A stretch of 63,980 nt of DNA, filler included, from Sphacelaria rigidula (taxonomy: Eukaryota): assembly GCA_964200075.2 (NCBI GenBank). It is 3 parts of 3 records of this genome, joined end to end, with 100 filler letters (N's around TTAATTAATTAA, not from the genome) between each part and the next. Parts side by side here need not be neighbours in the genome. Positions count along the whole stretch, not along the records: positions 43,569 to 63,980 come from CAXNAA020000531.1; 2 more parts are not named here. The stretch is one strand, 5' to 3'. Below the pieces are notes generated by a model, which saw nothing but the letters and a program-made list of their open reading frames with translations, searched no databases and was not told the DNA's origin. The stretch's first letter is position 1, and every line of letters starts with the position of its first letter. Shown piece after piece: positions 43,469 through 55,133 of the stretch. A program made the translations under genes and the position numbers.

Positions 43469-43568
43469 NNNNNNNNNNNNNNNNNNNNNNNNNNNNNNNN
43501 NNNNNNNNNNNNTTAATTAATTAANNNNNNNNNNNNNNNNNNNNNNNNNNNNNNNNNNNNNNNNNNNN
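43469..43568. other. Artificial contig-joining spacer
   Basis: 100 nt: Ns around TTAATTAATTAA, identical design to 21688-21787. Confidence 0.97.
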
Positions 43569-46347: not shown

Positions 46348-49300
46348 TTACAACCCGCGGTTAAGCTCTGATCTGAAGACTTGCCCACCTCTTGTGCGTG
46401 AAACACGGCTTCTGGTCTGCATCGTGACGCCACGTGGTGTTCGCGTGATGACTGGTTGCACCTGCGACATGTCGTTGTCTAAGGCTTCCATATCTTCCTC
46501 AATAGTAGGTGTGATAGGGTTGGGGTCATCAATACCCGCATCGTCGTCTTCTCTACGTGGTGTCGTGAACAACCTTCTCGGCGCTGAGTTACTATATCCT
46601 GCGGTTTTCCTTCTGGTTCTCGGTGTACCTGTGGCAGCCAGCCCAAAGAAGTCTCGGTTGGCAGCATACACATTTTTAGCATCTAAATTTTCAGCGTAGC
46701 TGTACCTAGGTGTTCCTCGGCTTGGTGTTCCTCGGTTAGGTGTTTGGGTTAGGCTTGCGTCAGCATCGGTTTGTGACACGAGATCATGGTTGATGGTTCC
46801 TCCTGTGCCCACCATTTTTTCGATTTGCTCCGTTGAATGGAGGTCGGGCTTAAAGTTACTTATTTGATGATTCAAAGCGATGGTGAGGTCGTCCAGGTTC
46901 GAGGACATGTAGTCCCTGCCTTGGATCGGGGTTGGACTCAAAACGACCGGGTGGCGGAGGGTTTTGCAACCGTTGTCAGACCACTTTATCGCGGCATTCC
47001 TTTTCGATTCGATGGTCTTGCTTGCAAAATAAGAGAATGAGAATGCGGCAATTTTTGACCACACGACGAGTAACCTTGTCATCTTGTCATCATCCGACCA
47101 CTGCAGCCGTGTCCTCCAAACAGATTCGATGATAGGTTTGATCTTGAAATGGAAAGCGAAAACAACAACTTCGGAGACTGCGCGCTGGTCTTCTTTCACC
47201 GCGCAGTGCTGTTTGACGTCTTTGACTACACCAGAGATGAGGTCTTCTTCCTCTGAAATGTTTTGTCGGCTACCGACATACTTCACGAAAGTTTCGAACG
47301 ATGACGCTCCTCGGGCCTTGAAGGCCTGTGAAGCGGCTTCTTTGCACGAGAGTGAGGAGGCAAAGTGCAGCAACGACTCCAACAAGTCCAAGTCGATGTT
47401 GTTGCTTAGTATTCTCAGTGCGTTGCACATCTCTCCGATGTCTTCGCTCATCTTTTCGATCTCAGTACCGTCGTCGATGCCGTGTGCTTTCGCCGAGTAC
47501 ATCGCTGTGGATATTGCCACACCGGTCATGATGTGGTACACGGCACACCACGGTTCCTCCAGATCGGTGTTCCGATACTTTTCGATGAATCCGTACGTTC
47601 GTGCGAGGGCTTCTTCGAGTCCAATAAGGCCGATGTTGGACGTAACTTGTTCCAACATAGCTTCATCGAACACGCGGAGTTCGACCGACGGTGACTCTTC
47701 GTCGTATTCGTGATGTTGGACGTGGAGCCATCCCTTGAAGTGGTTGTTGAGCCATTTCGCCAGTGCGTAGTGTGGCTTCCTTTCCGCATCCCTCTCGTCT
47801 TTTTCGATACGATCCATTTGGTGGGCGACTGTCGAAATAATCCTCTCTACACTGAACTCAGAGTAGGTGCGTTGGCCGCATATCCTCCAGTACACGTCCT
47901 TGAAGAGGAACACCATGTCCACGTTGTGTTGCAGGAGTTGGTGTACCACCGAGGAAACATGCCACCATCGAAACGTTTGAGAGCAGTGAACGCTCCAAAG
48001 AATCGAGCGCCGGTCGTTGGAGCTCGTCTGTGCATACAATGGGTTCACGGTCATGGTATCGGCAGGTTCAATTTCAACGATGCCACACTGACTCTTCCTC
48101 ACACCAGAAACGATTTGAGTCCGGAATTCGTCTCCTTTCTCGTCGCACGAAGGATACTCCGTGCGAATTCTGAGTACTCCGTGAAGCGAATGTCTGTCGG
48201 AGGTTGCAGACACGATGCCTCTTAAGATGGACACAACTTTGGCATTTAATGATGGGAAACCTAATTCTTCGTCCTGGTTCGACAACGGTGCCTCGAATGT
48301 ACTGGGCGAATTCCTTCGGAGTCCATCGACGTCAAACTGTACTCTGTTTGAGTTAGGGTAGAGCTGAGCAACAGAAAGGTCATTCTGTCCAGTGTTGGGA
48401 TTCGGTTCTTCCCCGGTCAAGTTACGAATGTTCTCAAGGGACATTTCAACAGGATTGTCTGATTGGTCACGCGGGGAATTTGGGACATCAGCCGAATCCA
48501 TGTCACTTGGGGAATTTGGGACGGAATCCTCGTCTTTTTGATCCATGGGGTATCCATGATTTACACCAGGTATACTGGCGATGCTTTCGTCGGTTGATGA
48601 TGGACGTGATGGCACTTCATCGTCGTCGTGGAACCTTGGTGGTGGTGGAGGTCTGCTGATTGATGTCGGGGAATCCACTTCATGATCGTCGTGGAACCTT
48701 GGTGGTGGTGGAGGTCTGCTGATTGATGTCGGGGAATCCACTTCATGATCGTCGTGGGACCTTGGTGGTGGTGGAGGTCTGCTGATTGATGTCGGGGAAT
48801 CCACTTCATGATCGTCGTGGAACCTTGGTGGTGGTGGAGGTCTGCTGACTGATGTCGGGGAATCCACTTCATGATCGTCGTGGAACCTTCGTCTATTCGT
48901 GTGACGTGAGCGCGGTGGTGGAGGTCTGCTGATTGATGTCGGGGAATCCACTTCATGGTCGTCGTGGAACCTTCGTCTATTCGTGTGACGTGAGCGTGGT
49001 CGTGGTGGGCGAGGAGCTTCCGTCTGGGTGGTACCATCGGAAGTTCGTGCTGGTAGTCGTGGTGGGCGAGGAGCTGGTGTCTGTGTTGTACCATCGGAAG
49101 TTCGTGCTGGTAGTCGTGGTGGGCGAGGAGCTGGTGTCTGTGTTGTACCATCGGAAGTTCGTGCTGGTAGTCGTGGTGGACGAGGAGCTGGTGTCTGTGT
49201 TGTACCATCGGAAGTTCGTGCTGGTAGTCGTGGTGGGCGAGGAGCTGGTGTCTGGGTTGTACCAGTGCCAGTGGAGACTCGTGGTGTCTGTGTGGTACCA

Positions 49301-49743
49301 GTGCCAGTGGAGACTCGTGGTGTCTGTGTGCCTCCTGTGCCGGTGGAGACTCGTGGTGTCTGTGTGCCTCCAGTGCCAGTGGAGACTCGTGGTGTCTGTG
49401 TGCCTCCTGGGCTAAATCCTCCTGGGCTAAACCCTCCTGGGCTAAATCCTCCTGGGCTCAATCCTCCTGGGCTAAATCCTCCTGGGCTGTCTGGGGGTAT
49501 GGAGTAAAATCCGTCCATGGAATCATCATCATCTGGGAAAGCTAACCCTGAGTCTGCTAGACGCACTAGTTTTCTCCTCTTTTTCGTTTTCTTCATGGTT
49601 TTCTTTCCGGATCGTATCTTGGCGAGATACCTTTTGGAAACGCATCTGTTTGTCCTTGGGTTTGTCGCTTGATCCTTTCTACAGGGTTTTTTGCACCTGT
49701 TTGTCTTGGGATTTCGGCGTTGCGGTGGTTTGCACTTCTTCAT
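46348..49743 (-). CDS. Large repeat-containing viral protein, paralogue 1 (Cys-RNPxT-RC N-terminus, SPGG/TQT/PPPR repeats, ~500-aa helical domain)
   Basis: 1131-aa ORF; N-terminus and central-C-terminal domain clearly homologous to 50981..54367 (e.g. LFKDVYWRI, LDDxTxALNxQISN, SRTRGG). Confidence 0.92.
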   Translation of the reverse strand: MKKCKPPQRRNPKTNRCKKPCRKDQATNPRTNRCVSKRYLAKIRSGKKTMKKTKKRRKLVRLADSGLAFPDDDDSMDGFYSIPPDSPGGFSPGGLSPGGFSPGGFSPGGFSPGGTQTPRVSTGTGGTQTPRVSTGTGGTQTPRVSTGTGTTQTPRVSTGTGTTQTPAPRPPRLPARTSDGTTQTPAPRPPRLPARTSDGTTQTPAPRPPRLPARTSDGTTQTPAPRPPRLPARTSDGTTQTEAPRPPRPRSRHTNRRRFHDDHEVDSPTSISRPPPPRSRHTNRRRFHDDHEVDSPTSVSRPPPPPRFHDDHEVDSPTSISRPPPPPRSHDDHEVDSPTSISRPPPPPRFHDDHEVDSPTSISRPPPPPRFHDDDEVPSRPSSTDESIASIPGVNHGYPMDQKDEDSVPNSPSDMDSADVPNSPRDQSDNPVEMSLENIRNLTGEEPNPNTGQNDLSVAQLYPNSNRVQFDVDGLRRNSPSTFEAPLSNQDEELGFPSLNAKVVSILRGIVSATSDRHSLHGVLRIRTEYPSCDEKGDEFRTQIVSGVRKSQCGIVEIEPADTMTVNPLYAQTSSNDRRSILWSVHCSQTFRWWHVSSVVHQLLQHNVDMVFLFKDVYWRICGQRTYSEFSVERIISTVAHQMDRIEKDERDAERKPHYALAKWLNNHFKGWLHVQHHEYDEESPSVELRVFDEAMLEQVTSNIGLIGLEEALARTYGFIEKYRNTDLEEPWCAVYHIMTGVAISTAMYSAKAHGIDDGTEIEKMSEDIGEMCNALRILSNNIDLDLLESLLHFASSLSCKEAASQAFKARGASSFETFVKYVGSRQNISEEEDLISGVVKDVKQHCAVKEDQRAVSEVVVFAFHFKIKPIIESVWRTRLQWSDDDKMTRLLVVWSKIAAFSFSYFASKTIESKRNAAIKWSDNGCKTLRHPVVLSPTPIQGRDYMSSNLDDLTIALNHQISNFKPDLHSTEQIEKMVGTGGTINHDLVSQTDADASLTQTPNRGTPSRGTPRYSYAENLDAKNVYAANRDFFGLAATGTPRTRRKTAGYSNSAPRRLFTTPRREDDDAGIDDPNPITPTIEEDMEALDNDMSQVQPVITRTPRGVTMQTRSRVSRTRGGQVFRSELNRGL

Positions 49744-49922
49744 AATGAATCCCTCTTATGAAATATGCAACAAATTAAAACTCGTGAACCACTCTTAAAT
49801 CGTCTCGAGATGTAGTCGGAAACAGGAAAGCAGGTCTTCCCAGATGCTTCCACGATAGCAGTTTCATATGACGAGACGACGGGTTACTCCGATGGAGATC
49901 TAGTTTTTAGTACTTATATATT

Positions 49923-50132
49923 TCAAGTTCCCAAGGTACAGTAGTTGCTGTACTCATCTTCGTCGTCCGCTTCGTCGAAGAGCCTATCTATTCTATTTCT
50001 TTCTTTCAAAAAGGAGTTTTTCGGGTTGTACGTCAGCCAACCTTTTGCCCTCTGATGCCTGGGCATGATGTGACCTAAGCCCAGGTTAACGGTTTGAGAC
50101 AGAAATGTCTCGAGGATCTTCGTATACGACAT
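49923..50132 (-). CDS. Small hypothetical protein
   Basis: 69-aa ATG ORF filling the gap, co-oriented with neighbours. Confidence 0.55.
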   Translation of the reverse strand: MSYTKILETFLSQTVNLGLGHIMPRHQRAKGWLTYNPKNSFLKERNRIDRLFDEADDEDEYSNYCTLGT

Positions 50133-50174
50133 GACTCAATCAATCAATCAATCATTCTACACTCTAAGCATATT

Positions 50175-50798
50175 TTATTGTGGTACACAGCAAGATTGGA
50201 GTTTCTTCCAAAAGGCGAAGACTCCCGACAACACCCCCTTCACTCTCTGCTTCTTATAGAACGCCTTCATGCCGGGAAGTCGGCTCCGCATTGTTTCCTC
50301 TAACCCTACCAACCCTCGCAGGAAGTAGACTTCGACACGACTCCCGTTCGTGGCCACCAGAGTGAGACTAACAGTTTTGTTGGCGTCGCTTTTTCCCGTC
50401 CCGGGGATGCAGTATACGTATTTGTTGTAAATTCTCCTTGTTTTTTCTGACTGGTGTTGAAGCATCTCTCGCAAAATCTGTTCCCCGGCTGCAGCGAAGG
50501 ACCTGACGTCGTTCAGGCTAACTGCAACCTCTCCACACATCTTGTAAATATTTCCGATCGTGTCCATCTGCAAGAGTCCGATCAACTTGAACGCTCCCCA
50601 GTCTTCCATCGGCACTGCCAGAGGCAGGAAGTTTGATGGCAGTCCGTACTTGCCGTACCATGAAAACTGTTCTTCGTCAACGACCATGTCTCGAGGGCAC
50701 GTGAAGTAGTGGCACGAGCCGCCGATTTCCGTCCACCTCCTCGTCCACTCGGGCCTGAACTCTCCCATGTAAGAACTGATCGGGAATTTCTTGGCCAT
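50175..50798 (-). CDS. Hypothetical protein
   Basis: 207-aa ATG ORF with globular composition. Confidence 0.8.
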   Translation of the reverse strand: MAKKFPISSYMGEFRPEWTRRWTEIGGSCHYFTCPRDMVVDEEQFSWYGKYGLPSNFLPLAVPMEDWGAFKLIGLLQMDTIGNIYKMCGEVAVSLNDVRSFAAAGEQILREMLQHQSEKTRRIYNKYVYCIPGTGKSDANKTVSLTLVATNGSRVEVYFLRGLVGLEETMRSRLPGMKAFYKKQRVKGVLSGVFAFWKKLQSCCVPQ

Positions 50799-50832
50799 GA
50801 GAAGAATTTCCCTGAACCCTGTATATTATCCA

Positions 50833-50955
50833 TAGATTAAATGCCGTTTGTGTTGTACCAGTGCCAATGGAGACTCGTGGGCTAAATCCTTCGGGGCTAA
50901 ATCCTCCTGAACTAAACCCTCCTGCGCTGAATCGTCCTGGGCTGTCTGGGGTAAG
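50833..50955 (-). pseudogene. Relic of the SPGG/TQT repeat region of a third paralogue
   Basis: Reads PDSPGRFSAGGFSSGGFSPEGFSPRVSIGTGTTQT, matching 49370-49495; flanked by 32-bp direct repeats 50801-50832 and 50956-50987. Confidence 0.75.
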
Positions 50956-50980
50956 GAAGAACTTCCCTGAACCCTGTATA

Positions 50981-53900
50981 TTATCCAGAAGTTAGGCCAC
51001 CGAACAACTCCCTTCTCACTGCTGTTCCTCCCCTTGTACGTGAAATTTTGCTCCGGAGTATCCTGCCTGTTCGCACTAAGTGTGTCGTATTCGGTACCAT
51101 GCTTGGGGTACGAAGAGAGCTTTGTCCCCGCCTTGTGCCCGCCCTCGTGGTGTTGGGTGGTCTAGGGCTGTAACGTCTACGAGGTGTGCGCGTCGGTGGT
51201 GGCTGTGGTTCCTGTGATTCCGGAGTACCTGAGTTTTGTTGTTGCGTTCTTCCTTGTGTATCTCCTTGGGTATCTCCCTGTGGTCCTTGTGGTCCTGGTG
51301 TATCTCCTTGTGCTCCTTGTTGTTCTCTTTGTTGCCCGACTTCCCTCGGGGGTTCCGTAGAAGAGATATTTGTTTTACTAATATCTGGGTCGTCTTCGTC
51401 TACAGTCTTCGCCCACGTCAGCAAGTTGTCGTCGTTGTGGACAAACGGCCCATCCCCCACCATTGCTATGAGTTCTTCGTCTTGGTGAAGCTGGAACTTC
51501 AGGTTGCTTATTTGGTAGTTCAAGGCGACGGTGATGTCATCTAGATACGAAGTTTGGAATGTTTTAAACATCGTCTGGATGGGGGTTGGGTTGAGCATGA
51601 TCGGGTGATCTATGCCTTCACACCTGGCGTTGTTTCTTGACCACACGACGCCTTTATTCCTCTTGTTCGGCCCGATGAACTTGGATGCGCAGTTGAAGGC
51701 GGCAAACGCCGCTATTTTGGACACCATGATGAGTGATTTCTCCATCTCGGTGTTGTTCGCCCAGTCTATCTTTTGCCGCCAAATGGATTCCACGAGGGGC
51801 TTGATCTTGGTCAGAAAGGCAAACACCACGGCGTCCTTCACCTGTCCTGGGTGTAATCCCACCTCGGTTTCATTGTCAGGCAGACGACGCTTGGCGTGTC
51901 CCAGCACATCCTCCACGAGTTTTTGTGCTTTGTCCTTGTCATCGAGGTTGTTGAGATGGATCAGTACATCACCAAACGATTCCGCTCCCTTGACCTTGTC
52001 CTTGTATGCCTTCGCCGCGGCCAACTGTGCAAGTTCAGAGGGAGACGAGATCAAGTACAAGAGCTGCTCGAAAGACTCGGTTTCCACCCTGTCCAAGACG
52101 TTTCGCAGCATGTTGCACATGTTTGCGATTTCTTTGCTCATTTCATCAATGGTTTCTAGCCCTATGTTGAAGGCTAGCGCAGACTGCTTTGCGGAGGAGA
52201 TAGCAACACCAGTCAGGACGTGCTTTACAAGATTGATGGGTTTCTGGCTCTCGGTGTTTCTGAACTGGTCGGCAAGAGAATAAGCTTGTTGCAGCGTTGC
52301 CGTCATGGTACGGAGGGAAAATCCAGAAGCGAGATTTTCAAACCACGGTAGTTCGTGGTCAGGAAGTTTGACCGACGTTGCCGGGGCGTCGTAGTCGTGG
52401 TATTGGACATGAATCCACCCATTGAAGAAGTGGTTTAGCCACGCCTTCAAGGGTTCATTCGGTGCACTCTCCTCCTCGTGGTATATTCGATCCATGTTGA
52501 CCGCGATGTTGGAGATGATAGGTTCCAGGCTGAATTCCGGGTAGGCGCGTTGTGCAGATATCCTCCAGTAGACGTCTTTGAACAAAAACACGGTGTCGAC
52601 GTTGTACCGTAGCACCTCGTGCAGGACCGAGGAAAGGTGCCACCATTGGAGCGACTGTACGCAGAGGGCGTTCCACGAGATCCAATTCGGGGCAGTGCTA
52701 AGTATTCTGGAGTGCGCCGGGTTGAACGCGTGTGTTCGAACATATTCCACGCTAAGCAGCTGACACTTTTCAACTTTCTCAGCGTCACGAATTTTTCGTT
52801 GTACGCTGCGGGTTTCTGGGTCGCACTCAGGGTTTTCCTCTTCCAACACCAATACTCCACGAACTTGTTTATTGCCGTTTTGCAGAGCATGCATGATGCC
52901 CTTCAAGATGCCGGTGGCGCTTTGGCTGAACTCGGGGAACTCTCTTTTCCTTCTTACAAGGGTGTCGTCGTCCTCGGAGGTCGTGGGTGCTGTTCTTCGA
53001 AGGTGTTCCGTATCAAACAGACCGGGATGCTGAAGATCGGACACAAAATGTCTGAAGTTTGTACTGTCTGCGGTCTGGTCGAGGAAGCTCGTGTCGTTTT
53101 TCTCTTCTTCACCTTGCGTGCCGTCTAACAAATCTCTCAGATTTGCGAGGTGTATATCGTGGTAAGACTGGCTTGGAATAGGCGAGACGTTCACGTCGGG
53201 GAAGCCCGACGAATCCTCATTAAAATCGACATGTACTTCTCTGTCAGCGTATAGCAAGTCGTAACCGTCTAAAATATCCTCGTCGTTGCCTGGAGGGAAA
53301 CGTGGTATATGGTAACGTGGAGTCATGAGTTCGTTGTCCGTCTGAGTACCACCAGCGGAAGTCTCAATGCTCACAAAGTCCGTCTGCGTTCCACCAGTGG
53401 AGGTCTTATTGCCATTAAAGTCCGTCTGAGTTGCACCAGTGGAAGTCTCCAAATTAGCCCTTGTGTCGTTGTCCGTCTGAGTTCCACCGGTGGACGTCTC
53501 ATAGTTTGTCTGAGTCTCACCAGTGGAGGTTTCATAGTTTGTCTGAGTCTCACCAGTGGAAGTCTCAAAGTTTGTCTGAGTTCCATTAGTGGAGGTCTCA
53601 TAATTTGTCTGAGTCTCACCAGTGGACGTCTCAATGCCATCAAACTCTGTCTGAGTTCTACCAGTGGAAGTCTCAACGCCATTAAACTCTGTCTGAGTTC
53701 CACCAGTGGAAGGCTCAACGCCATCAAACTCTGTCTGAGTCTCACCAGTGGACGTCTCAATGCCATCAAACTCTGTCTGAGTTCTACCAGCGGAAGTCTC
53801 AACGCCATCAAACTCTGTCTGAGTTCCACCAGTGGAAGTCTCAACGCCATCAAACTCTGTCTGAGTTCCACCAGTGGAAGTCTCAAAGTTTGTCTGAGTC

Positions 53901-54367
53901 CCAACACGGCTCGTCTGTCGTGGAGCGGGTGGCGTTGGTGGATCAGATGGGGTAGGGGGAGCAGGTGGAGTAGGATTTTCGCGGGCTAAGTCATTCCAGT
54001 TCACGTTGAATTCGTGAACGTCGCCATCGAAGCCATTGTAAGTATCGAAGAACTCTTCTTCTTCATCGGAGTTGAAGATATCGTCGAAGTCTTGGAAGTC
54101 ATCGATGGAGTCATCGGACGAATGGTAGTCAGCGTAGCCAGTAAAAAAGTCATGTGTTGATTGCGCAGACTTTCTTGGTCTCGGTGCTCTGCTTCTTCTT
54201 GGAGGTGTAGTCCTTTTCGAGGAAGCCTTCTTCTTCGCAAGTTTTGCAAAATACTTTTTCGAGACGCATCTCTTCGTTCTGGGATTAGTGGCTTGGTCTT
54301 TTCTACAGGGCTTTTTGCATCTGTTAGTCAGTGGGTTTCTTCGTTGAGGTGGCTTGCACTTCTTCAT
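50981..54367 (-). CDS. Large repeat-containing viral protein, paralogue 2 (15 TQT repeats)
   Basis: ORF 50981..54388; start placed at MKKCKPPQRRNP (54367) by homology with paralogue 1. Confidence 0.92.
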   Translation of the reverse strand: MKKCKPPQRRNPLTNRCKKPCRKDQATNPRTKRCVSKKYFAKLAKKKASSKRTTPPRRSRAPRPRKSAQSTHDFFTGYADYHSSDDSIDDFQDFDDIFNSDEEEEFFDTYNGFDGDVHEFNVNWNDLARENPTPPAPPTPSDPPTPPAPRQTSRVGTQTNFETSTGGTQTEFDGVETSTGGTQTEFDGVETSAGRTQTEFDGIETSTGETQTEFDGVEPSTGGTQTEFNGVETSTGRTQTEFDGIETSTGETQTNYETSTNGTQTNFETSTGETQTNYETSTGETQTNYETSTGGTQTDNDTRANLETSTGATQTDFNGNKTSTGGTQTDFVSIETSAGGTQTDNELMTPRYHIPRFPPGNDEDILDGYDLLYADREVHVDFNEDSSGFPDVNVSPIPSQSYHDIHLANLRDLLDGTQGEEEKNDTSFLDQTADSTNFRHFVSDLQHPGLFDTEHLRRTAPTTSEDDDTLVRRKREFPEFSQSATGILKGIMHALQNGNKQVRGVLVLEEENPECDPETRSVQRKIRDAEKVEKCQLLSVEYVRTHAFNPAHSRILSTAPNWISWNALCVQSLQWWHLSSVLHEVLRYNVDTVFLFKDVYWRISAQRAYPEFSLEPIISNIAVNMDRIYHEEESAPNEPLKAWLNHFFNGWIHVQYHDYDAPATSVKLPDHELPWFENLASGFSLRTMTATLQQAYSLADQFRNTESQKPINLVKHVLTGVAISSAKQSALAFNIGLETIDEMSKEIANMCNMLRNVLDRVETESFEQLLYLISSPSELAQLAAAKAYKDKVKGAESFGDVLIHLNNLDDKDKAQKLVEDVLGHAKRRLPDNETEVGLHPGQVKDAVVFAFLTKIKPLVESIWRQKIDWANNTEMEKSLIMVSKIAAFAAFNCASKFIGPNKRNKGVVWSRNNARCEGIDHPIMLNPTPIQTMFKTFQTSYLDDITVALNYQISNLKFQLHQDEELIAMVGDGPFVHNDDNLLTWAKTVDEDDPDISKTNISSTEPPREVGQQREQQGAQGDTPGPQGPQGDTQGDTQGRTQQQNSGTPESQEPQPPPTRTPRRRYSPRPPNTTRAGTRRGQSSLRTPSMVPNTTHLVRTGRILRSKISRTRGGTAVRRELFGGLTSG

Positions 54368-54422: not shown

Positions 54423-55133
54423 TTAGTCTAAGGCTGTCTTTAGCATCTCGCCGATTTCGTCACTACACTCTTCTACAATCTCGTGTGCTAAGTTGACAAT
54501 GGCATCCCTGTACCCCTTACGGTCACGCCAGACTTTGTAGTCTCTCTCGTAGTCGGATCCGTACATCGTCAGAAGCTCGTCTCCTTTGTCAACATCGTGT
54601 GGGATAACGAGGAGAGTGATTGGAAGAGGCTTCTTTGCTCGGTATGCCTTAATGATGTCTTCTTTCGACAAGCAAACGTTGTTCACGAAGACGCAATTGG
54701 GGGGTGACTTTGAAGCCTCGTTCACGTAGGATGCTGCTCTTAGTTGTCTGGGCAGCTTCTTCAAGGTCGGCATCGTAGGATTCCCGTCGGCCACCATGGA
54801 CTGAATGTTTCTCGTCTTGTCTTCGTCGTTGACGTATGTAACGGACATGAAGTATGTGTCGTCGTCTTCGTCCTTCACCTCCGAGACCTTTTTCACTACA
54901 GCGTAGTAAGGCAAGATGGTTCCAGCCTCGATGTCTCTCTTACAGAAAACCCCTTTTCCGGCTCCTTCCATCTCGGAGTTTCTTAGGGCGACGTCTTCTT
55001 TGTCGATGAGGCGTGTAGTTAGTTCTTCCTCACTGTCGTCACTGTACGGTTCGCTCTCGACGTCTTCCGTGCGAATGCTGTCGGTGTCGCTCATGTCGTC
55101 AACAGGGTTAGAGACTGTGTTCCCCTTCGCCAT
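54423..55133 (-). CDS. SET-domain lysine methyltransferase-like protein
   Basis: SEMEGAGKGVFCKRDIEAG (motif I), AASYVNEA..PPNCVF (NHS-equivalent), DVDKGDELLTMYGSDY (ELxxxY). Confidence 0.85.
   Translation of the reverse strand: MAKGNTVSNPVDDMSDTDSIRTEDVESEPYSDDSEEELTTRLIDKEDVALRNSEMEGAGKGVFCKRDIEAGTILPYYAVVKKVSEVKDEDDDTYFMSVTYVNDEDKTRNIQSMVADGNPTMPTLKKLPRQLRAASYVNEASKSPPNCVFVNNVCLSKEDIIKAYRAKKPLPITLLVIPHDVDKGDELLTMYGSDYERDYKVWRDRKGYRDAIVNLAHEIVEECSDEIGEMLKTALD

Follow-up and report, generated by a model that had tools for sequence, protein, structure and literature searches.

A stretch of Sphacelaria rigidula DNA of 63,980 nucleotides, filler included (assembly GCA_964200075.2; hereafter the window), encodes two large proteins, paralogue 1 (P1) and paralogue 2 (P2), each with an array of short tandem units that contain the tripeptide Thr-Gln-Thr (TQT). 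They are best explained as members of a rare, unnamed protein family of phaeovirus type, paralogues in tandem that lie in a virus-derived block beside eukaryotic exons. For the arrays we favour, giving it about an even chance, a reading in which they are lineage-specific slippage expansions of a Thr/Gly/Ser-rich unit within a hypervariable, disordered linker of this family. The genes and their arrays are placed as follows.

46348-49743, (-) strand: P1, an intact open reading frame (ORF) of 1131 aa
50981-54367, (-) strand: P2, an intact ORF of 1128 aa counted from its ATG
49021-49401, (-) strand: TQT array of P1, nine TQT (Tandem Repeats Finder and motif counts)
53339-53899, (-) strand: TQT array of P2, 15 TQT (Tandem Repeats Finder and motif counts)

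The first-pass annotation had described two paralogues of ~1130 aa with a near-identical N-terminus and a shared large domain, and this description holds: the lengths agree, 34 of the 36 N-terminal residues are identical, and P1 369-987 aligns with P2 350-979 at 231/651 identical positions (35%; BLASTP in both cases). A GTG-started extension of P2 would run to 54388. Neither protein matches a Pfam family. All 15 TQT of P2 lie between aa 157 and 341, and P1 has ten, nine in the array (aa 115-239) and an isolated one at aa 999. Five units of 12 aa (RVSTGTG[GT]TQTP) followed by four of 19 aa (APRPPRLPARTSDGTTQT) make up the P1 array, and the P2 units are 14 aa (ETSTGxTQTEFDG[VI]) or 11 aa (ETSTGETQTNY) long. 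Tandem Repeats Finder delimits repeats of 57 bp (x4.7, 48999-49264) and 36 bp (x4.4, 49246-49407) in P1, and of 42 bp (x2.7, 53336-53449), 33 bp (x4.8, 53475-53633) and again 42 bp (x6.7, 53606-53886) in P2, so that the counts of 15 and 9 and the unit lengths of 33/42 and 36/57 bp first proposed for the two arrays are borne out. A DNA pattern for three TQT has 20 matches in the window (0.00 expected from 100 shuffles), and the remaining ATG-started ORFs of at least 100 aa in the window contain a single TQT in 8242 residues altogether. The excess is thus real, but it came about through tandem duplication, and the independent events are the few unit types rather than 24 units. Units match one another in DNA at 92-97% in P1 and 82-91% in P2; because these values are high, we consider the arrays young.

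The units of both paralogues share S-T-G-(TG)-x-T-Q-T and the underlying DNA TCCACTGG...CAGAC, with four of seven codons of the core identical, a level at which common descent and convergence are inseparable. TQT had been named as the shared core; it is indeed common to both arrays, but the core is longer and extends to the DNA. The accompanying claim that the two arrays expanded independently was not demonstrated, since fragments of linker have also moved within the locus, as seen in a remnant between the two genes.

50829-50949, (-) strand: non-coding relic of a P1-type linker, between the P2 stop codon and a 207-aa ORF

This relic contains GGFS units and one RVS.GTGTTQT unit (one frame reads PDSPGRFSAGGFSSGGFSPEGFSPRVSIGTGTTQTAFNLW) and is flanked by direct repeats of 39 nt with 90% identity (50801-50839 and 50956-50994); one copy overlaps the end of P2. 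The relic together with the direct repeats indicates that linker DNA moved ectopically within the locus.

Relatives of the two proteins support our reading. An exhaustive profile search among 1.84 billion representatives recovered 15 of them at E <=1e-3, seven at <=1e-30. A scan of prokaryote genome contigs matched two contigs, L003 and L004, both from one bin labelled bacterial (G001) that holds exactly two family members. These are probably virus contigs that were mis-binned, because they carry genes of eukaryotic-virus type: members of the P1/P2 family, a SET-domain ORF and a gene for a hybrid histidine kinase. The ORF at L003:496-3615 is 54% identical to P1 over 730 columns, and that at L004:2099-5260 is 42% identical to P2 over its whole length; around the latter, L004 has the gene order of the window around P2 (209-aa ORF, SET ORF recognised by Pfam, P2-like ORF, 206-aa ORF). 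Given this shared order and the presence of exactly two members in the bin, we regard the two ORFs as the orthologues of P1 and P2. The domain had no relatives in IMG/VR or the JGI metagenomes, and the ESM Atlas returned no usable match. A word search with the N-terminal module matched P0005 alone, and one with the P2 array returned only unrelated repeat proteins (of LETSTGELK type and ETQTELNETQLELE type). Two IMG/VR loci matched the N-terminal 50 aa; one, L002, was rejected as a chance match in an exonuclease-like ORF, and the score of the other, L001, is as weak (20 residues, 55%).

The linker turns over between these relatives. The TQT array is absent from all 16 database homologues, two of which have a single TQT elsewhere, and their linkers hold other repeats, such as PVNPV (P0004), QAQGQ (P0012) and GGPGG (P0007). 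P1 residues 43-432 do not align with the P1 orthologue, whose N-terminal module is duplicated (L003:496-800) and whose linker consists of (QPQ)n and SEHPEY-type repeats with no xQT at all. In the P2 orthologue we find about three units, roughly R.TQTGNT.SAG[SN]QTDFEP, homologous in DNA to those of P2 (they share CAGAC.GA.TTTGA), which implies that a QT-[DE]-F unit is older than the split of the two viruses. Of its eight xQT sites three read TQT, two SQT, one NQT and two AQT, so the residue before Gln appears free to change there. Retention of TQT among homologues, to which the first-pass annotation had pointed as a check, is therefore found in part in the P2 orthologue (3/8) and is lacking in the P1 orthologue and the 16 homologues. 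As judged from these alignments, the large expansion is specific to the virus of the window, and the residue before Gln has drifted in the orthologue.

The linker is also predicted to be disordered. In an AlphaFold2 (AF2) model of full-length P2, residues 50-448 are disordered except for a short helix at 407-414; the predicted local distance difference test score (pLDDT) stays below 50 over residues 50-404 (block means 24-36) and is 25-36 in the segment with the TQT array, and the tail after the domain is disordered as well. The P1 linker, going by its composition, is probably disordered too. Repeats without TQT occur in both proteins.

49403-49488, (-) strand: 15-bp array of P1 (x5.7, Tandem Repeats Finder), SPGGF units, no TQT
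48613-49005, (-) strand: 63-bp and 84-bp arrays of P1 (Tandem Repeats Finder), RPPPP..RFHDDHEVDSPTSIS units, no TQT
51251-51334, (-) strand: second low-complexity region of P2, after the domain, GDTQG/PQG units (Tandem Repeats Finder)

The start of the 48613-49005 region aligns by eye with the stretch SRHTDRTRF..DLDSP of the L003 ORF. The region after the P2 domain has GDTQG/PQG units in the window versus VQD repeats in the orthologue.

Members of the family are built of an N-terminal 36-aa Cys/basic module, an acidic-aromatic stretch, a linker of ~400 aa predicted to be disordered, an alpha/beta and helical domain of ~520 aa and a basic tail, and the hypervariable linker holds different tandem repeats in each lineage. 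Under the slippage reading, slippage or unequal recombination would have amplified a Thr/Gly/Ser-rich unit with the core S-T-G-x-T-Q-T, which would be old in the P2 lineage and greatly expanded in both paralogues of the window's virus. The main role of the arrays would then be that of a disordered spacer whose length can be adjusted, with TQT carried along with the unit, and we infer that no specific partner reads it. We favour this reading because of the linker turnover (0/16 homologues with an array, no xQT in the P1 orthologue and about three units in the P2 orthologue), because the arrays are young and the region after the P2 domain is likewise repeat-prone and unlike its orthologue, because TQT arrays are common in phage-looking IMG/VR contigs and Gly occupies position -3 of the unit in 22/24 cases (both discussed below), and because there is a precedent in ascoviruses and iridoviruses, where Cys-adaptor motifs are combined with rapidly evolving repeats in the proteins described in PMC6163548.

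Several observations on the units weigh against this reading. Across the arrays the TQT codons show four distinct synonymous and no non-synonymous variants, whereas the flanks have 10 synonymous and 42 non-synonymous ones (Fisher p = 0.0027 pooled, 0.054 for P2 alone). Lack of homology between unit types at positions +3 to +6 inflates this contrast. When it is limited to positions -6..+2 of P2 the counts become 2/0 versus 6/11, which is not convincing. There was no ascertainment loss, since every unit delimited by the repeat finder carries TQT. The flanks are opposite in charge, basic and Pro-rich in P1 and acidic-aromatic in P2, around the same S-T-G-x-TQT core, and of the P2 positions that precede the anchor, -2 varies most (G8, E4, R2, A1), which is also where LC8 is most tolerant. 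An invariant triplet within a constant core and a variable -2 are not predicted by a pure spacer model. At the level of codons, selection on the TQT triplet is suggestive only.

The rival reading, proposed in the first-pass annotation, is that the TQT units recruit the dynein light chain LC8 (DYNLL) in a multivalent manner, and we give it a minority chance, well short of an even one. LC8 dimers would bind the TQT units of two chains in register, so that the disordered ~400-aa linkers become a stiff, ladder-like rod and the protein a dimer; such arrays might also act as a sink for LC8 or as a link to dynein. This hypothesis accounts best for the invariance of a three-residue anchor across oppositely charged flanks, with codon variation that is synonymous only. 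We compared the 24 array units (nine of P1 with five distinct 8-mers, 15 of P2 with 10) with published motif rules, numbering the anchor T-Q-T -1/0/+1, and tallied by eye the 79 binders and 32 non-binders of Table S4 in PMC6607443. The anchor is present in 24/24 units. Position +2, where the motif prefers Pro, Asp or Glu (PMC6607443), is one of these in 19/24 (9/9 in P1 and 10/15 in P2); the first-pass annotation had called Pro at +2 non-optimal, which is wrong, as Pro is favoured there according to PMC6607443. The remaining five P2 units have Asn, which counts against LC8 binding, being found at +2 in 1/79 binders and 3/32 non-binders of that table. Position -4, described as polar, with no large hydrophobic residue and no internal Pro (PMC6607443), agrees with the rule (T16, D4, A2, R1, P1): Thr or Asp stands there in 20/24, with Asp in all four 19-aa units of P1, and Pro is confined to the first P1 unit. 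Position -2, which varies most among the P2 residues ahead of the anchor, is the one that LC8 tolerates best (PMC6607443).

An objection to LC8 comes from position -3, for which a side chain at least the size of Val is described (PMC6607443): it is Gly in 22/24 units, Val in one and Asn in one. In Table S4, counted by eye, 1/79 binders (AMOTL2) and 2/32 non-binders have Gly at -3, and no peptide of that table has it at both -3 and -2. Of the earlier remark that Gly at -2/-3 is non-optimal, the part on -3 is thus borne out and that on -2 is not, the latter position being tolerant in the account of PMC6607443. Ser/Thr/Gly-rich TQT peptides are moreover among the proven non-binders listed in Table S4 of the same source (MUC2 TPTGTQTP, ITGAX PENGTQTP, POU2F1 GNTGTQTN). 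On the other side, the 19-aa P1 unit SDGTTQTP resembles the binder AMOTL2 RDGSTQTE, and the P2 unit STGETQTE resembles ATMIN SDTETQTE (both in Table S4, PMC6607443). With motifs of eight residues, the unit periods (11/12/14/19 aa) imply linkers of 3/4/6/11 residues, within the range in which dASCIZ binds; there, binding occurs with each of the linker lengths 3, 6 and 9, and the complexes are homogeneous with 6 and 9 (PMC10046861). The array is predicted to be disordered, and weak LC8 motifs can bind through multivalency (PMC6607443, PMC12057147). At the corresponding place the P2 orthologue has PQVHTQTG and YNRRTQTG, LC8-compatible by eye, and AGSQTD, similar to the WWC3 binder CDAGSQTD (Table S4, PMC6607443), while its sites homologous to the window units read SQT, NQT and SQT, which argues against LC8, as do the missing TQT of the P1 orthologue and the missing array in 16/16 distant homologues. 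A precedent in a large DNA virus is E183L of African swine fever virus (ASFV), which appears in the binder table of PMC6607443. A search for PF01221 gave no match in G001 or the control genomes.

The same Q-T pairs could instead form an S/T-Q cluster, that is, dense substrates or decoys of ATM/ATR-type kinases during viral nuclear replication or integration, which we hold to be highly improbable. Such clusters are usually defined by at least three S/T-Q within 100 residues, and the nine TQ in 125 aa of P1 and 15 in 185 aa of P2 are far above that definition. ASCIZ/ATMIN illustrates that TQ clusters and LC8 motifs can coincide (PMC6607443). The Q-T pair is invariant at the eight sites of the P2 orthologue, yet Asn or Ala before Gln is not phosphorylatable, so that three of the eight (NQT, AQT, AQT) are without a phospho-acceptor, and the invariance of the second Thr is left unexplained by a kinase.

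As a control for TQT arrays in general, we ran the three-TQT pattern over IMG/VR and found at least 119 loci. Among the matches listed, many have at least three in-frame TQT within a stretch that stays open for 40 codons or longer (frames unchecked for coding), and most of these are Thr-rich linkers, of (T-x)n or PT type, on contigs that look like phages. To our knowledge, phage hosts have no LC8. From this rough control we conclude that TQT arrays arise readily without LC8, and their frequency on phage-looking contigs lowers the weight of the LC8 hypothesis. Two of the IMG/VR loci differ in appearance: L094 has three KETQTE units with a 15-aa period that look like canonical LC8 motifs, and L050 a long STQTAG/SIQTAG array with periods of 8/16 aa. 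The window arrays resemble the PT-type linkers of phages and bacteria in their tandem Thr-rich units with recurring TQT, but the latter are mostly alternating T-x, whereas each unit of the window arrays spans 11-19 aa and has a single TQT behind a conserved S-T-G prefix. Another reading is a mucin-like spacer, an extended, protease-resistant stalk that would arise by O-glycosylation or heavy phosphorylation of the Thr/Ser/Pro/Gly-rich units. The composition resembles that of the PT-type linkers and of the mucin TQT peptides in Table S4 (PMC6607443): no residue is more frequent in P2 than Thr (10.6%), and Ser, Pro and Thr are within the four most frequent of P1. Both proteins, however, start with a basic Cys module and show no signal peptide, and the P2 units are acidic-aromatic rather than Pro-rich, and we judge this explanation improbable.

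Compared with the multivalent LC8 clients covered by PMC6607443 and PMC10046861, such as ASCIZ/ATMIN (7-11 motifs), Nup159 (5), Chica/FAM83D and BSN, the window arrays are alike in their several TQT anchors, disorder, short linkers between motifs and individually weak motifs. They differ in their 9 + 15 near-identical units with strict periods and recent tandem duplication, in Gly at -3 in 22/24, in a motif that is not family-wide, and in that LC8 binding is only putative here. p54/E183L of ASFV, encoded by a nucleocytoplasmic large DNA virus, also has an LC8 motif (Table S4, PMC6607443), but a single, SQT-anchored one; the protein is unrelated, and the lineages of virus and host are different. 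P64 of ascoviruses and its iridovirus relatives share the order of N-terminal Cys motifs followed by fast-evolving tandem repeats (PMC6163548), though the P64 repeats are Arg/Ser-rich and condense DNA, while P1 and P2 lack a match to PF08793, have non-basic repeats in P2 and continue into a large globular domain. Among the papers listed by literature searches on LC8 or dynein light chain and giant viruses, none describes TQT arrays in such viruses.

That giant viruses have in P1 and P2 their first multivalent LC8 clients, gained recently and adaptively in both paralogues, seems to us doubtful, if far from negligible. If it were true, two linker chains would be zipped by as many as 9 (P1) or 15 (P2) LC8 dimers into a rigid rod that dimerises the protein and fixes the distance of the N-terminal Cys/basic module from the globular domain; alternatively, host LC8 might be sequestered, or incoming virus material coupled to dynein toward the nucleus. 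The arrays would then be the densest natural LC8 array known to us and the first in a giant virus of algal type, and offer an entry point to the use of a universal host hub by such viruses. If LC8 does not bind, the locus would show that even perfect conservation of a TQT array does not identify an LC8 client, since Thr-rich repeat linkers readily give rise to such arrays. Either way, the locus defines a rare and uncharacterised virus protein family with a domain that has no match among solved structures. Its conserved parts lie at both sides of the linker.

49636-49743, (-) strand: N-terminal 36-aa Cys/basic module of P1, 34/36 identical to that of P2
54260-54367, (-) strand: N-terminal 36-aa Cys/basic module of P2 (BLASTP, AF2 model)
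46774-48336, (-) strand: conserved domain of P1, aa 470-990, an alpha/beta subdomain and a helical bundle (AF2)
51443-53020, (-) strand: conserved domain of P2, aa 450-975 (BLASTP, AF2 model)

The N-terminal module has two NPxTxRC motifs and four Cys. It is modelled in P2 with a pLDDT of 74-87 over residues 1-40 and 70 over 41-50, as strand pairs at ~9-10/17-18 and 25-27/34-36 followed by a helix at 37-48. Identity in the module is 94% between the paralogues and still 84% in P0005, whose domain is about 26% identical. Because the DNA differs at many synonymous sites, we take the module to be under strong selection; the same differences, together with the closer likeness of each DNA to its own orthologue, led us to reject gene conversion as an explanation for the near-identity of the N-termini. 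No Pfam match was found for the two 50-aa N-termini at E up to 10, PF08793 (2C_adapt) included, and PF08793 matched neither the L003 ORF in a six-frame search of G001 nor the 14 homologues searched at E up to 0.1. The NPxTxRC motifs are presumably similar to the motif of PF08793, although the hidden Markov model of that family does not match. After the module, most family members have an acidic-aromatic stretch (Asp/Glu/Ser with Phe/Tyr), at aa 69-85 of P1 and aa 70-125 of P2 and also in P0004, P0005, P0009 and the L004 ORF, in which the composition is conserved and the sequence is not.

The P1 domain is modelled with a pLDDT of 82.9 and a predicted template modelling score of 0.85. Foldseek gave no match in the PDB (best E 0.19), and its best match in BFVD, at E 1e-4, is EsV-1-200 of Ectocarpus siliculosus virus 1; prasinovirus and pithovirus proteins and F317L of ASFV come next. 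The likeness to EsV-1-200 has a probability of 1.00 and a template modelling score (TM) of 0.55 on the target over 245 columns, but it concerns a part of the domain only, with TM 0.29 on the query and 13% identity. Cytomegalovirus IE1, the best VIA match (Z 6.6), was rejected, as it falls within the stated noise for helical models. In addition to its P1 orthologue, L003 encodes a PhyH protein and a hybrid histidine kinase that combines HisKA, HATPase_c and Response_reg. Phaeoviruses encode hybrid histidine kinases, and the kinase and the EsV-1-200 fold match together point to a virus of phaeovirus type.

The alpha/beta subdomain (P1 aa 495-690, ~47674-48261) also shows a consistent set of weak matches to MPN/JAMM chains (Rpn8/11, CSN5, BRCC36 and JAMM1; model residues 18-217) at Z 4.4-5.3, below the level that the tool regards as meaningful. 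MPN/JAMM domains have a conserved metal-binding pair of His, and no His stands in the invariant or nearly invariant columns of the 13-sequence family alignment; if the likeness in the model is real, this would be an inactive MPN-like fold. At the other end of the proteins, otherwise unalignable basic tails keep a terminal motif, R-S-x-[VI]-S-[RK]-[TL]-R-[GS]-G-x-x-[VI]-R-x-E-L (46348-46440 and 50981-51070, (-) strand, and the C-termini of the L003 and L004 ORFs and P0009), which could be a processing site or a docking peptide.

In the window, the first 44 kb are eukaryote-like, with few long ORFs and exon-like pieces that match PP-binding and NAD_binding_4 (at ~26.8 and 32.5 kb), and from ~44 kb on the ORFs are dense and include a SET-domain ORF and an AP_endonuc_2 ORF. 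Two runs of 44 N each (43469-43512 and 43525-43568) sit exactly at this transition, which makes the junction of the two blocks unreadable. No capsid or polymerase gene was recognised among the ORFs scanned. Contigs aligned to the stretch cover it, with breaks at the arrays and no variants. Two ORFs next to P2 have counterparts on L004.

50175-50798, (-) strand: 207-aa ORF between the paralogues, by eye like L004:5294-5914, matching in length and order
54423-55133, (-) strand: SET-domain ORF upstream of P2 (Pfam); the SET ORF L004:1320-2015 has the same position

On L004, the 206-aa ORF is followed by three more ORFs (411, 385 and >457 aa, L004:5926-9793), and the end of a similar ORF lies just before the P1 orthologue (L003:1-375); if L003 and L004 adjoin, these ORFs separate the two orthologues in the related virus. 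Only ~430 bp (49744-50174) lie between the 207-aa ORF and P1 in the window, and this short gap, set against the arrangement in the related virus, suggests a deletion in the inserted copy.

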